Of a DNA stretch of 64,000 nucleotides, positions 45,931 through 62,201 are shown one piece after another. The notes below the pieces were generated by a model that saw only the letters and a program-made list of their open reading frames with translations, was not told the origin of the DNA and searched no databases. This DNA is from a phage. Both the position numbers and the translations under genes were made by a program. The first letter of the stretch is position 1, and the number at the start of each line of letters is the position of its first letter. Location: the sequence record OZ346228.1; one strand, 5' to 3'.

Positions 45931-46121
45931 TGTGCCACCTGGCGGGGCCGCTGTCAACACTTTTCAAAAAATTTTTCTAACCTGGTGCGCTAACCGTTGC
46001 AACCTGGCGGGGCCAGCCTGGCAGGACCTAACTGACCAGGTAGGGGAGAATGAAGGCTTGTAAACCTGGTGGGCCTATGCTACAGGATAGGTAACAATTG
46101 AAGAGGAGGTACAAAAATGAT

Positions 46122-52938: not shown

Positions 52939-53256
52939 AAGCACATAGCCGCCAGATCTCAGAATTTACGTACGCTCACCAGTCTATAGCCTGCTAAGTA
53001 TTTATTCCAACCATAGAATAACGGAATAGTCAATACCTGCATAAAATAATTATTCGTGTAAACTGCATAACATAAATCGGCTAGGATGTCAACATTTTTC
53101 GTAAACAGCTCGAAATTATAACGGTGAGTTATAATAAACAGAGAAATCTTTAGTCGTCTAATGTTTACTGTACATTACTATACTGACTGGAATCATTAGA
53201 TGACTAAGAGAAAGATAAGAAATCATTAACAATGCAATTGTTTTATTCGTAACAAT

Positions 53257-57818: not shown

Positions 57819-58106
57819 TCATAGTGCCTCTAAGATTTCATATCCTTCAGGTCGAAATACAAGCCACTCCGTGGCTCCGTTTGGTCGATACGCTTTATAC
57901 AGAACAACCTGATCTCGGCACATGCACATGGCTACATAGTTTTCATCCACACCTGCAGCCTGCATTGCATCTTCTTCTCCGGCAACTGCTTTGCTTACAA
58001 CTTCCTTGGTAGGTAGGTGTGCGATCAGCTCGTCACCATCATTAATTCCAAAATGACTGAGTTCTCCATTGGTATCTTTAATCTTAATCTTAACCAGATC
58101 TTTCAT
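57819..58106 (-). CDS. small acidic protein (paralog family)
   Basis: 95 aa; MK..KIKIKD start and acidic EILEAL end. Confidence 0.45.
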   Translation of the reverse strand: MKDLVKIKIKDTNGELSHFGINDGDELIAHLPTKEVVSKAVAGEEDAMQAAGVDENYVAMCMCRDQVVLYKAYRPNGATEWLVFRPEGYEILEAL

Positions 58107-58435
58107 TAGTCTTTCTCCAGGTTCAAAGGTCCTAAGATTTCATATGCCAGATTAGAAGTTACCAGAGGGTCTTCTGCATCTTTAGTATTGTACCACCCGT
58201 GAATAACCAGAGTCCCACTTTGTTTCATATCCAACTGGAACTGTTCTGCAGTTTCCTCATCCAGCTCCAAGATTTCCATAAGGTATTTGATGTTAGGAAG
58301 GTATGCAGCTGTTACAGTTCCCTCCACCAAACCTTCGGGCCAACCTACATCCGGATGACAAGTAGGAACCAGGTTGGTCAACTTAATGGTGTACGCTTTT
58401 TCTGCACGAGCCTTCAGTAACGGGTCAATCTTCAT
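58106..58435 (-). CDS. small acidic protein
   Basis: 109 aa; start overlaps upstream stop. Confidence 0.45.
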   Translation of the reverse strand: MKIDPLLKARAEKAYTIKLTNLVPTCHPDVGWPEGLVEGTVTAAYLPNIKYLMEILELDEETAEQFQLDMKQSGTLVIHGWYNTKDAEDPLVTSNLAYEILGPLNLEKD

Positions 58436-58785
58436 TATTCGTCCTCCTCTTCGGTGCCTGCTTCCAGTAATAAGTTAAGAATATCTTCTGCACAAGGCTC
58501 ATAGAACTCTTGGCCTTCATTATCGATGATTTTGTAGTCATCTCCACGAATAATCAGGGGATCACTCTCAAAATTATCGAGACCTTTAACAACGACAACA
58601 CGATCGATTGCCATCATTGTAAGAACTTTATCGACATCTTCCTCTGCTACACCATACTGCAGCAGAATGTCTTTGGTAGGAGGAACAGCATCCACCACAA
58701 CGCCGTTACCAAAACCTTCTGGAAGTTTAGCTAAAATATCTTCCGGAACCACATTCACATCAAAACCGGTAATTTCTACTTTCAT
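58435..58785 (-). CDS. small acidic protein (paralog family)
   Basis: 116 aa; MKVEITGFD start; poly-Glu C-terminus. Confidence 0.45.
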   Translation of the reverse strand: MKVEITGFDVNVVPEDILAKLPEGFGNGVVVDAVPPTKDILLQYGVAEEDVDKVLTMMAIDRVVVVKGLDNFESDPLIIRGDDYKIIDNEGQEFYEPCAEDILNLLLEAGTEEEDE

Positions 58786-59122: not shown

Positions 59123-59518
59123 TTACTGAAACAGTGCGGATAAATTACCTTCTGGTGGGAACTTATCTGCCAAAAACGGTGTTAGCACAGTAGCCTTCTG
59201 AAGATCTGGGGTCCACTCGTTGTTCAGAACATCCCAGTAGTACGCAATGTTGCTGTGTGGGTGCCGCATTACGAACTTTTTCCCTTCGTAGTCGTCTGAA
59301 ACCTCTACAGAAGAAATAACAACAGAATCTTCAAGGGTTTCTTCATAGAAAGATCCCCCTTCAAATTTCCAACGAGATGCAAGAGCCCCTGCCTTGAACG
59401 CTGCAGATAACGGACTGTCGGCAAGAACATACATTTCTTGCACTCTGTCGCTGCGATCTTTGCTTCTTACGTTGTATACAGTATCTGAGCTATACTCAAC
59501 ACGGTATAGGCTTACCAT
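59123..59518 (-). CDS. hypothetical protein, paralog of 61330-61728
   Basis: 131 aa; FVMRHPHSNIAYYWDVLNNEWTP matches FVIVHPDSRVKHYWNSRTKTWTP in the other ORF. Confidence 0.5.
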   Translation of the reverse strand: MVSLYRVEYSSDTVYNVRSKDRSDRVQEMYVLADSPLSAAFKAGALASRWKFEGGSFYEETLEDSVVISSVEVSDDYEGKKFVMRHPHSNIAYYWDVLNNEWTPDLQKATVLTPFLADKFPPEGNLSALFQ

Positions 59519-59850
59519 TACCGCACCTCCTCAATAACTTCCACATCTGAACCTACCACAAATGCAAAAGGACAGGTTTCATGAAAGACATCTGGATCGC
59601 CGCCAAGCTTGCTAACAATCTCTCCACCACTAATAAACACAAGCTCACCGATATTCATCAGATTGCTGAAATAGTACCCATAATGATTAAAGAATGCAGC
59701 AGGGTCAGGTAGACTGGTAGCCTCAAGCACTACATCGGTTGAGGTTACTTTCTTATCATAACCTCTCGCCTTTTGAGATGCAAGATCTGCAGAATCCTCA
59801 GGAGACCGGAGATGCACAGGAATTGTTTCACCAATAAAGCGTACTTTCAT
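59518..59850 (-). CDS. small acidic protein (paralog family)
   Basis: Start at ATG (MKVRFIGE...) 4 nt after the upstream stop; the track start 59877 is TTG; ends VGSDVEVIEEVR. Confidence 0.45.
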   Translation of the reverse strand: MKVRFIGETIPVHLRSPEDSADLASQKARGYDKKVTSTDVVLEATSLPDPAAFFNHYGYYFSNLMNIGELVFISGGEIVSKLGGDPDVFHETCPFAFVVGSDVEVIEEVR

Positions 59851-60118: not shown

Positions 60119-60209
60119 ATAGTATCACCTCTGGTAAGAGATTGGGATTCCTTTCCCACAAATAATTACAAATCTTCCTTATCGAGGAAGTATGCTAATC
60201 CAAGCAGGA

Positions 60210-60479
60210 TTATTCCTCTACAATCTCATACACATCAGGAGTTACAATCAACTCTTCTCCGTTACCCGGTGCAACAAACACCACCAAACCTTCAGGTGTG
60301 TGCTTTTTAGCCATCTCGATAACATCTTCTCGCAGAGCTGGCTCCATCAGATCAAAACCTTCACCCAGGGCATCACGAACCACCTTCATATAGTCAACTG
60401 GTTGTGCTTCAACAATCATGCCTTCAACCAGTCCACAGTTTTTGTCTGCCAGCTCAGTTTTGAATAATTTAATTTTCAT
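60210..60479 (-). CDS. small acidic protein (paralog family)
   Basis: 89 aa; MKIKLFKTELAD start; TPDVYEIVEE end. Confidence 0.45.
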   Translation of the reverse strand: MKIKLFKTELADKNCGLVEGMIVEAQPVDYMKVVRDALGEGFDLMEPALREDVIEMAKKHTPEGLVVFVAPGNGEELIVTPDVYEIVEE

Positions 60480-60616
60480 TTAGAGGTCTCCTCAATTATT
60501 TGATATTAATAGCCGTAACCTAACACATTAACTACAACTGCGATTGCAAACATAATTTCAAAGCATGCAATCTCTACATTTGGGACTAATTTCTTAATCA
60601 CACCCATTGTAGCACC

Positions 60617-60937
60617 TCATTCTCCAAAGTCAATCTTTACTTTGCCTTTCCCCTTACCTTTCTTTCCACCGCATTTAGCCAGCTGACGTGCTGCAACATC
60701 TACCATACGGTCAGTTGCCTCGTAAGCATCACTGCCTTTAGCCTTGGCAATAACTTCTTTTCCAGAATTGTCAAAAATGAACGCCATAACTTCCTGGTGA
60801 TCATTTTCAACTTTTACACTTACACGTGCATAGTTAACAGAGGGATGTAAACGCTCCAGCTTGGACATTTTGCGGGAAATAAAAGATACCATACCTTCTG
60901 TGATTTCTACATTGTTGCCAGTGATTTCAATTTGCAT
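60617..60937 (-). CDS. hpf: ribosome hibernation promoting factor / RaiA-like protein
   Basis: 106 aa; MQIEITGNNVEITEG...KLER...VKVE...GSDAYEATDRMVDVAARQLAK aligns along its length with bacterial HPF/YfiA (MQLNITGNNVEITEA...KLE...LKVEK...GQDMYAAIDGLIDKLARQL); Lys/Gly-rich tail. Confidence 0.75.
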   Translation of the reverse strand: MQIEITGNNVEITEGMVSFISRKMSKLERLHPSVNYARVSVKVENDHQEVMAFIFDNSGKEVIAKAKGSDAYEATDRMVDVAARQLAKCGGKKGKGKGKVKIDFGE

Positions 60938-61021
60938 AACGTGTTCCTTTTAAGGAAGAGGGAATAACTATCTCTCTTTGAAAACAATGATACTAAATCT
61001 GAAGCGTTGTGTCAACAGTTT

Positions 61022-61329: not shown

Positions 61330-61728
61330 TCAGTTTAGCTTTTCTTCAACAACCCCATAACTTGGGGCAGAGTCAAGAGCTTTCTGGTTTAAAAGTGGCG
61401 TAGCAGAATCTGCAAACGGTGTCCAAGTTTTTGTTCTGGAATTCCAGTAATGCTTCACTCTGGAATCTGGATGCACTATAACAAAAACTTTTTCACTTGT
61501 CAACACATTAATTTCTTCTACACCCTTGCTGATAATTTCTCCGTCATAGCCCCCAGTCTGGTATCCTTCGTACCAGGTTCTTGCATAGGCATAGCCAGCC
61601 TGCCAGCATGCAGCCTCCTCCGAGGTGGAGACTACGTAGAAGTCTTTCTCAAATTCCGGAATACGCCCTTGCTTTACGCTCCAAGCTCCGCGAATTTTCA
61701 TTGTTACTTTGAAAAGCTTGTTCTTCAT
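61330..61728 (-). CDS. hypothetical protein, paralog of 59123-59518
   Basis: 132 aa; shared HP.S...YW.....WTP segment. Confidence 0.5.
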   Translation of the reverse strand: MKNKLFKVTMKIRGAWSVKQGRIPEFEKDFYVVSTSEEAACWQAGYAYARTWYEGYQTGGYDGEIISKGVEEINVLTSEKVFVIVHPDSRVKHYWNSRTKTWTPFADSATPLLNQKALDSAPSYGVVEEKLN

Positions 61729-61729
61729 A

Positions 61730-61984
61730 CTACCGCTCTACAATCTCTACGTCTGTTCCTACACCGAAGGCATAGTAATGTTCTTCCCCAAAGTAATACT
61801 TGGGGACACCCGCTTTGATCAGATCTAACCCGCGAATAAATACCACACCGTGTGATACAGTGGAATGCTTCTGACGCACAGGATCGTTGTCAGGCAACCA
61901 TTCAAAGTACACCGCAGGTACAACCTTTCCCTTCAGGAAGGATTGTCCCAAGTAGACGTTAGAATCAAGAATTTTAACCTTCAT
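61730..61984 (-). CDS. small acidic protein (paralog family)
   Basis: 84 aa; MKVKILDSNVYLGQ start; GVGTDVEIVER end. Confidence 0.45.
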   Translation of the reverse strand: MKVKILDSNVYLGQSFLKGKVVPAVYFEWLPDNDPVRQKHSTVSHGVVFIRGLDLIKAGVPKYYFGEEHYYAFGVGTDVEIVER

Positions 61985-62201
61985 TCTCGTCCTCCACTAT
62001 CTCTGCATCCTCACCAAGGGCAAAGTTGTAGGTCCACTGGCTGTCAAAGCAGTCTTGAGATGCACCAGCGGCAATAAGATCTGCACCTTTTATTTTTAAA
62101 AGGTCAGGATAATCTTCGTTAGGGATAGCGGTAAACACTTTCCCCACTAAGGGCTCCTGACCAATATAGAAGCTTGAATCTAAAACTTTAACTTTCATCA
62201 A
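61974..62201 (-). CDS. small acidic protein (paralog family)
   Basis: 75 aa; MMKVKVLDSSFYIGQ start; EDAEIVEDENEG end. Confidence 0.45.
   Translation of the reverse strand: MMKVKVLDSSFYIGQEPLVGKVFTAIPNEDYPDLLKIKGADLIAAGASQDCFDSQWTYNFALGEDAEIVEDENEG

Follow-up and report, generated by a model that had tools for sequence, protein, structure and literature searches.

A divergent short-form HPF/RaiA-family protein of rV5-like phages and its possible action on host ribosomes

A preliminary description of phage DNA (64,000 nucleotides of sequence record OZ346228.1, hereafter the window) proposed that one of its small genes encodes a homologue of the bacterial ribosome hibernation promoting factor (HPF/RaiA). 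The locus raises three questions: whether the product belongs to this family, whether such a gene is unusual in phages, and what the protein might do to the ribosomes of the host. The homologue was correctly recognised, yet it is already known: annotation of the gene goes back to the rV5 GenBank record, and Mizuno et al. 2019 (PMC6375957) published it and put it to an experimental test. Its value as a discovery is small, with HPF-type names present in dozens of GenBank genomes and a 2019 Nature Communications article about ribosomal proteins encoded by viruses having catalogued and tested the gene. What is new in the present analysis is the estimate of dN/dS, the synteny in a sister lineage, the gene’s own sigma-70 promoter, the loss of three basic residues and the presence of a basic tail in both lineages.

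Family membership and predicted fold

The coding strand of 60617–60937 is the minus strand, and the plus-strand translation is broken by a stop codon; the preliminary description had given no strand. The complete product is MQIEITGNNVEITEGMVSFISRKMSKLERLHPSVNYARVSVKVENDHQEVMAFIFDNSGKEVIAKAKGSDAYEATDRMVDVAARQLAKCGGKKGKGKGKVKIDFGE. All of the motifs quoted for the 106-aa frame are present: MQIEITGNNVEITEG at residues 1–15, KLER at 26–29, VKVE at 41–44 and GSDAYEATDRMVDVAARQLAK at 68–88, with the tail CGGKKGKGKGKVKIDFGE closing the protein. The end-to-end resemblance to HPF that had been noted by eye was borne out by alignment of residues 1–90 with residues 1–89 of E. coli HPF at 42–43% identity, and the added Lys/Gly-rich tail was likewise found where described.

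Table 1. Coordinates of the hpf-like gene and associated features in the window
Feature	Position	Strand	Basis or remark
hpf-like CDS, 106 aa + stop	60617..60937	minus	ATG start; stop codon 60617-60619; ORF list and Pfam/NCBIfam/PDB sequence matches
S30AE/HPF core domain, residues 1-88	60674..60937	minus	AlphaFold2 model and Foldseek against PDB
Lys/Gly-rich C-terminal tail, residues 89-106 (CGGKKGKGKGKVKIDFGE)	60620..60673	minus	charge +4; predicted disordered, pLDDT < 50 from residue 91
Shine-Dalgarno-like AAGGAA, 6 nt 5' of the hpf ATG	60944..60949	minus	sequence reading; Murica record has an RBS at the equivalent place
Sigma-70-type promoter TTGACA-17 nt-TATCAT, preceded by AAACTG	60987..61015	minus	promoter scan; 11/12 consensus positions
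33-aa strongly hydrophobic ORF MGVIKKLVPNVEIACFEIMFAIAVVVNVLGYGY	60506..60607	minus	ORF list; start 9 nt past the hpf stop codon

Profile searches placed the protein above the curated cut-offs of both general models of the family. Its match to PF02482 (Ribosomal_S30AE) reached 56.7 bits (gathering score 23.7; E = 4.2e-15) and spanned residues 3–89 and profile positions 1–83 of 88; against the general HPF/YfiA model TIGR00741 the protein scored 56.8 bits (cut-off 40.9). The scores for the two equivalogs were under their cut-offs, at 65.2 bits for HPF (NF007780, cut-off 125) and 22.8 bits for RaiA (NF007654, cut-off 158). In a sequence search of the PDB the best matches were the E. coli HPF chains 2rql, 4v8h and 6h4n (E ∼4e-15), and long HPFs matched through their N-terminal domains only. 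The N-terminal S30AE domain is the sole Pfam domain of the 106-aa protein, which is therefore not of the long-HPF type (∼180–190 aa with a C-terminal dimerisation domain); its equivalog score and its C-terminal extension also set it apart from the enterobacterial short HPFs, which are ∼95 aa long and lack such an extension.

An AlphaFold2 model, computed from a shallow alignment of five sequences, had a mean pLDDT of 84.2 and values of 89–95 in the core. Its predicted elements are strands at residues 2–8, 34–43, 48–56 and 61–68 and helices at 14–30 and 71–90. When this model was compared with the PDB by Foldseek, the top 36 matches were all HPF, RaiA or pY, with target-normalised TM-scores up to 0.94; the rmsd was 1.1 Å to V. 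cholerae HPF and 1.2–1.6 Å to E. coli HPF at 43% identity. Weak matches to dsRBD-like folds ranked after those to HPF. Profile search and structural superposition, two of the checks suggested when the gene was first described, thus agree, and we conclude that the product is almost certainly a divergent protein of the HPF/YfiA (Ribosomal_S30AE) family, of the short form.

A word-indexed homologue search returned only five proteins, and an exhaustive HMMER search was needed to recover cellular relatives. Among 1.84 billion cluster representatives, a single cluster (P0004) exceeded 50% identity, at 64–66%, and the best cellular relative, an enterobacterial HPF-like protein, reached 44%. P0004 is encoded on contigs of 125–137 kb whose gene layout matches that of the window, with hpf at the syntenic position; in the hpf region about one quarter of their DNA aligns to Vequintavirus, at ∼75% identity. 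These contigs are a divergent sister lineage of Vequintavirus. As a separate observation, the representative library contained a protein of 1160 aa (P0007) in which eight separate stretches match query residues 36–82, the central beta-sheet part, an unusual repeated arrangement of partial S30AE-like units.

Basic residues, tail and ribosome binding

We aligned the phage protein with 141 cellular homologues and with E. coli HPF and RaiA, and compared it with the rRNA contacts listed in a cryo-EM study of Gram-negative hibernating ribosomes (bioRxiv 10.1101/2025.10.07.680626). That study describes K80 and K89, in the basic track of helix alpha-2, as strictly conserved and rRNA-contacting. Five of the eight conserved basic positions (E. 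coli numbering) are kept, namely K23, K26, R83, K87 and K91. The other three are replaced in both phage lineages: R17 has become V, and K80 and K89 are V and G in the window protein but T and S in the sister lineage. Two of these three are described rRNA contacts, and they make up two of the five basic contacts of alpha-2. K/R is missing at both K80 and K89 in only 6 of the 141 cellular sequences, several of which resemble truncated or frameshifted fragments, and at all three positions in only 2 of the 141. In addition, H55, which together with E60 contacts the C-terminus of uS9, is F in the window protein.

The tail is basic in both lineages. In the sister lineage it reads SKSKGIDKRTAKWDY, with a net charge of +3, and there, too, the basic tail closes with an aromatic-acidic motif (KYSKSKGIDKRTAKWDY); the pI of the whole protein is 9.0–9.4 in the phage lineages as against 6.5 for E. 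coli HPF. Not a single amino acid of the tail differs among the window, nomo and rV5. Elsewhere it varies: single-base indels in G/A runs shorten it in Murica (99 aa) and APCEc02 (101 aa), and YN3 has an in-frame deletion of two codons. Such differences could be genuine or could reflect sequencing errors in homopolymers; if the Murica and APCEc02 frameshifts are genuine, they suggest that the protein may do without its extreme C-terminus. We rejected a changed number of GK repeats in the tail as the cause of the difference between the 106-aa protein and the 105-aa protein of rV5; the difference lies instead in a one-codon Asn indel at positions 8–9.

[quoted passage not shown] The rV5 protein was detected in crude extract, including the tail peptide VKIDFGE, and was absent from high-salt-purified 70S and 100S fractions; the abundance of 100S particles did not change upon its expression. 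The authors offered three possible reasons, namely the growth phase, the salt washes or a real loss of binding, and they speculated that viral HPF may compete with its cellular homologues and so prevent dimer formation (PMC6375957). The absence of the protein from the high-salt fractions indicates that ribosome binding may be weak or lost. The claim that the phage protein stabilises or silences host ribosomes, made in the preliminary description for takeover or stress, finds no support in this published test, which saw neither stable ribosome association nor an effect on 100S.

In E. coli, tail-less HPF acts together with RMF to give 100S dimers, whereas the longer tail of RaiA points to the RMF site and keeps RMF from binding, so that ribosomes stay as inactive 70S monomers (PMC7764885; bioRxiv 10.1101/2025.10.07.680626). 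The explanation that we prefer, tentatively and at a little short of an even chance for the whole of it, is that the phage family member is a RaiA-like, RMF-excluding factor of lower affinity acting on host ribosomes. According to this proposal, host RNA polymerase would transcribe hpf from the gene’s own sigma-70 promoter, and the protein would bind vacant host ribosomes at the place used by its cellular counterparts HPF and RaiA, the tRNA/mRNA channel of the 30S subunit. Its docking would be altered by the loss of R17, K80 and K89 and by the flexible, strongly basic tail of 16–18 residues that extends from alpha-2 and that, by analogy with the tail of RaiA, may reach toward the RMF site, close to the anti-Shine-Dalgarno region. 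The phage protein would there compete with host HPF and RMF, and idle ribosomes might be held as protected, easily released 70S monomers instead of 100S dimers. Host ribosome hibernation would in this way be tuned to the benefit of the phage in slow-growing or stressed cells.

An HPF-like core combined with a tail of RaiA-like length speaks for this RaiA-like reading, as do the retained rRNA contacts K26, R83, K87 and K91, and the unchanged 100S abundance and the loss of the protein in high-salt washes (PMC6375957) agree with it. Against it stand the absence of the rV5 protein from the salt-washed ribosome fractions, the replacement of K80, K89 and R17, the lack of similarity between the phage tail and the tail of RaiA and, if they are real, the frameshifted tails of Murica and APCEc02. 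The atypical basic residues and the conserved basic tail define variants with which to test if, and in which direction, ribosome hibernation is manipulated by phages, and the question has a practical side in that phages of the genus Vequintavirus find wide use in phage therapy and in the biocontrol of E. coli O157.

The replaced contacts can also be read as the mark of a repurposed fold, in which the HPF fold was kept, ribosome binding was lost, and the dsRBD-like fold with its Lys-rich tail binds another RNA or protein in the infected cell. We regard this as unlikely, although more probable than the other alternatives. It would account for a protein that is expressed yet missing from ribosome fractions (PMC6375957), for two lineages that both lack K/R at three conserved basic positions, a combination as rare among cellular homologues as stated above, for the high divergence from every cellular HPF (best identity 44% among the 1.84 billion representatives), and for the weak dsRBD-like matches behind the HPF ones in the fold search. 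However, five of the eight conserved basic positions and most fold-defining residues remain, and the negative experiment involved stringent salt washes and growing cells, caveats that its authors list themselves (PMC6375957). Moreover, none of our data point to an alternative target.

It is also conceivable, although rather improbable in our judgement, that the protein works against hibernation. A low-affinity HPF mimic, marked by the loss of three conserved basic contacts and the gain of a Lys-rich tail, would fill the HPF/RaiA site, exclude RMF and prevent or reverse the formation of 100S particles, and would be displaced easily when phage mRNAs initiate translation. The trigger may be the host, or a dormancy-inducing defence system, putting ribosomes to sleep; RMF induction has been reported with DRT2, as cited in PMC13434031.

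Somewhat less probable still is a genuine HPF-type promoter of dimerisation, which would act with host RMF to turn 70S into 100S and so shut down or store host ribosomes during takeover. The protein does resemble HPF more than RaiA, by equivalog score (65.2 against 22.8 bits) and by identity (42% to E. coli HPF, 25% to RaiA). Any dimer formation would have to use the RMF of the host, because a search of the phage record collection with an approximate RMF sequence found no RMF homologue, a weak negative. But 65.2 bits is far under the NF007780 cut-off, the tail is 11 residues longer than the end of E. coli HPF, in the place where the tail of RaiA blocks RMF, and the contact residues K80 and K89 are lost. 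Furthermore, when the protein was expressed in E. coli, 100S abundance showed no discernible change and the 100S fraction did not contain it (PMC6375957).

Conservation, expression and annotation of the gene

The remaining functional alternative, a neutral passenger gene taken from the host with no role in infection, is very improbable. It could appeal to a region dense in small accessory genes and to the fact that no phenotype has been reported. However, the comparison of the window gene with that of rV5 gave a dN/dS of 0.044 (dN 0.008, dS 0.185), and the gene is kept in about 118–119 of ∼121 related records. In the comparison with the sister lineage dS was saturated and dN was 0.30, and the gene lies there at the same position; it also has its own conserved promoter. 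The low dN/dS and the synteny across a saturated synonymous distance indicate that the phages have carried the gene for a long time and that strong purifying selection acts on it, as opposed to a recent or neutral capture. An old acquisition follows as well from the identity to any cellular HPF, which is at most 44%, and we rejected recent capture from the host on this ground and because the gene is older than the split of the two phage lineages.

The promoter upstream of hpf is identical in rV5, where it is annotated as P144, and in the sister lineage (contig L003) AAACTG followed by a TTGACA core likewise occurs 5′ of hpf. In the rV5 genome paper, ORF 144 belongs to a large transcription unit of genes 82–163, together with genes of nucleotide metabolism and replication, and E. 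coli-type promoters alone are reported in this unit (PMC3606486). If host RNA polymerase uses the hpf promoter, the gene could be expressed without phage factors. The preliminary description called the surrounding genes early-type, which is plausible given the consensus sigma-70 promoter directly upstream of hpf, and early expression of hpf is a reasonable inference from that promoter; a literature search found no transcriptome or time-course data for Vequintavirus. A regulatory hairpin hiding the Shine-Dalgarno sequence in the 5′ leader (60920–60985, minus) was considered and rejected, as the fold was no better than that of shuffled sequences (z = −0.6).

Five copies of the extended promoter motif AAAnTGTTGACA, each with no more than one mismatch, lie in the window, where 0.58 are expected, and none of 100 shuffles reached five. 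The sites are 1212–1223 and 1500–1511 on the plus strand and 45952–45963, 53087–53098 and 61010–61021 on the minus strand. The motif may mark a class of strong host-type promoters in the phage.

The neighbours of hpf are small genes on the same strand, as the preliminary description had said of the cluster. The 33-aa hydrophobic ORF that follows (Table 1) is annotated in rV5 (ORF 145), nomo, Murica and YN3 and is uncalled at this place in the sister-lineage contig L003. It has no Pfam match, is probably co-transcribed with hpf and may be a small membrane peptide. A terminator-like hairpin lies at 60190–60174 (minus), after the gene that follows this ORF. Seven neighbouring small ORFs were scanned against Pfam for translation-related partners, with no match.

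Several of the flanking small genes form a diverged paralogous family (61730–61984, 61974–62198, 59518–59850, 57819–58106 and 58435–58785, all on the minus strand). The adjacent pair 61730–61984 and 61974–62198 shares 41% identity (E = 1.7e-15), and each member matches 59518–59850 at the C-terminus of the latter. By eye, many neighbours of hpf share an MK(V/I)K start and an acidic end resembling (Y/V)E(I/V)VE. A second pair, 59123–59518 and 61330–61728 (minus; 131 and 132 aa), flanks hpf, and its members are paralogues with 28% identity over 119 aa (E = 8e-10). One of them corresponds to ORF 142 of rV5, which the rV5 record calls similar to a hypothetical protein of Listeria phage A118; neither has a Pfam match. 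ARAGORN found no tRNA genes in the window; phage tRNAs are discussed in the rV5 paper, and their genes are presumably clustered in the half of the genome outside the window.

The 2 kb around hpf are 99.5% identical to Escherichia phage nomo and 94–99% identical to ∼120 other rV5-like myoviruses (Vequintavirus), the genus to which the window belongs. A tblastn search with the protein matched 119 records, of which 118 are rV5-like phages (at least 93% amino-acid identity) and one is a Salmonella chromosomal contig that encodes a cellular HPF with 42% identity. Among the matches listed, V18, rV5_ev146, MaxBurger, slur16, A51.2, naswa and SophiaRose carry an identical 106-aa protein. A search of 50,697 phage records with E. 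coli HPF gave matches at E ≤ 1e-3 in 130, of which ∼118 were Vequintavirus; the remainder were scattered, with examples in the Xanthomonas jumbo phage XaC1 and in a small number of Listeria, Enterococcus or faecal fragments. The earlier statement that HPF genes are uncommon in phages therefore holds overall but not within Vequintavirus, where practically every record has the gene. Eighteen records labelled “Campylobacter phage” (MG065xxx, host given as C. jejuni) are 94–96% identical to rV5-like coliphages here and carry the same hpf gene, which suggests that they are mislabelled or contaminating E. coli phages.

The preliminary description also supposed that such genes are usually left unannotated, which proved wrong for this one. 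It has been annotated since the rV5 record (DQ832317), which names ORF 144 “sigma 54 modulation factor,” and 35 of the 59 phage matches listed bear an HPF, RaiA or sigma-54 modulation factor name; among the same 59, 10 are called hypothetical, 4 are called “ATP-dependent protease La” and 10 come from unannotated records. RefSeq uses ribosome-hibernation-type or RaiA names for the gene in slur16, Murica and FFH2. The protein’s own PHROG, 12469 (1e-69), is labelled “unknown function,” and the hypothetical labels in newer records are probably due to this. Mizuno et al. 2019 (PMC6375957) listed the proteins of rV5, FV3, JES-2013 and FFH2, together with typing-phage proteins, as virus-encoded HPF, and Mathieu et al. 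2020 (PMC6969025) gave the same annotation for five gut rV5 isolates; beyond Mizuno et al. and this mention, our literature search for follow-up on phage HPF found nothing relevant.

Two kinds of labelling error were observed in these records. The name “ATP-dependent protease La type I” on a 105-aa HPF homologue, in four Vequintavirus records (vB_EcoM_10C2/366V_SA_NWU, bov11CS3, bov25_3), is an evident mis-annotation. In APCEc02, “sigma 54 modulation factor” was placed on APCEc02_082 (89 aa), two genes downstream, and the true HPF, APCEc02_083, is called hypothetical; the misplaced label was passed to nomo_102 and apparently also to naswa, magaca and navn, where the name is listed twice. The 89-aa gene that bears it corresponds to 60210–60479 (minus) in the window, to 857–1064 in L008 and to 4211–4480 in L001, and has no Pfam match.

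The sigma-54 name goes back to the location of hpf within the rpoN operon; members of the family are today regarded as ribosome hibernation factors. That the phage protein regulates sigma-54-dependent transcription can be dismissed for practical purposes, since this historical name, carried in many GenBank records, is all that speaks for it and all of the structural relatives found are ribosome-bound factors.

Comparison with known HPF and RaiA proteins

The closest known counterpart is rV5 HPF (ABI79209, ORF 144), which is the same gene, with 97% protein identity and the same position, upstream promoter and neighbours. The window allele has Asn-Asn at positions 8–9, like E. coli HPF, where rV5 has a single Asn, and the two differ further by H22R and A34V. 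The 106-aa proteins of MaxBurger, slur16 (RefSeq) and rV5_ev146, which are identical to that of the window, are annotated as ribosome hibernation factor or RaiA. Far more distant, and independent, are the members of the same family in other large phages, namely Cronobacter phage GAP32, Xanthomonas phage XaC1 and PHROG 8990: PHROG 8990 was matched at E = 1e-7 as against 1e-69 for PHROG 12469, and the HPF of GAP32 was not retrieved by tblastn with the window protein at 1e-5.

Among cellular proteins, E. coli short HPF (YhbH; 2rql, 6h4n, 4v8h) shares K26, R83, K87 and K91 with the phage protein. Relative to it, the phage protein has one additional residue in the beta3-beta4 turn, a Lys/Gly-rich C-terminus that is 11 residues longer, V/V/G in place of R17/K80/K89, a pI of 9.0 instead of 6.5, and an equivalog score of 65 against 125. 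E. coli RaiA (YfiA, protein Y) shares the fold of the phage protein and, like it, extends C-terminally past alpha-2 to a comparable length, with 113 aa in total as against 106. The identity to RaiA is 25%, and the two tails lack sequence homology and differ in net charge (+4 in the phage protein, −4 in RaiA). Nevertheless, both consist of a basic stretch followed by an aromatic-acidic end.
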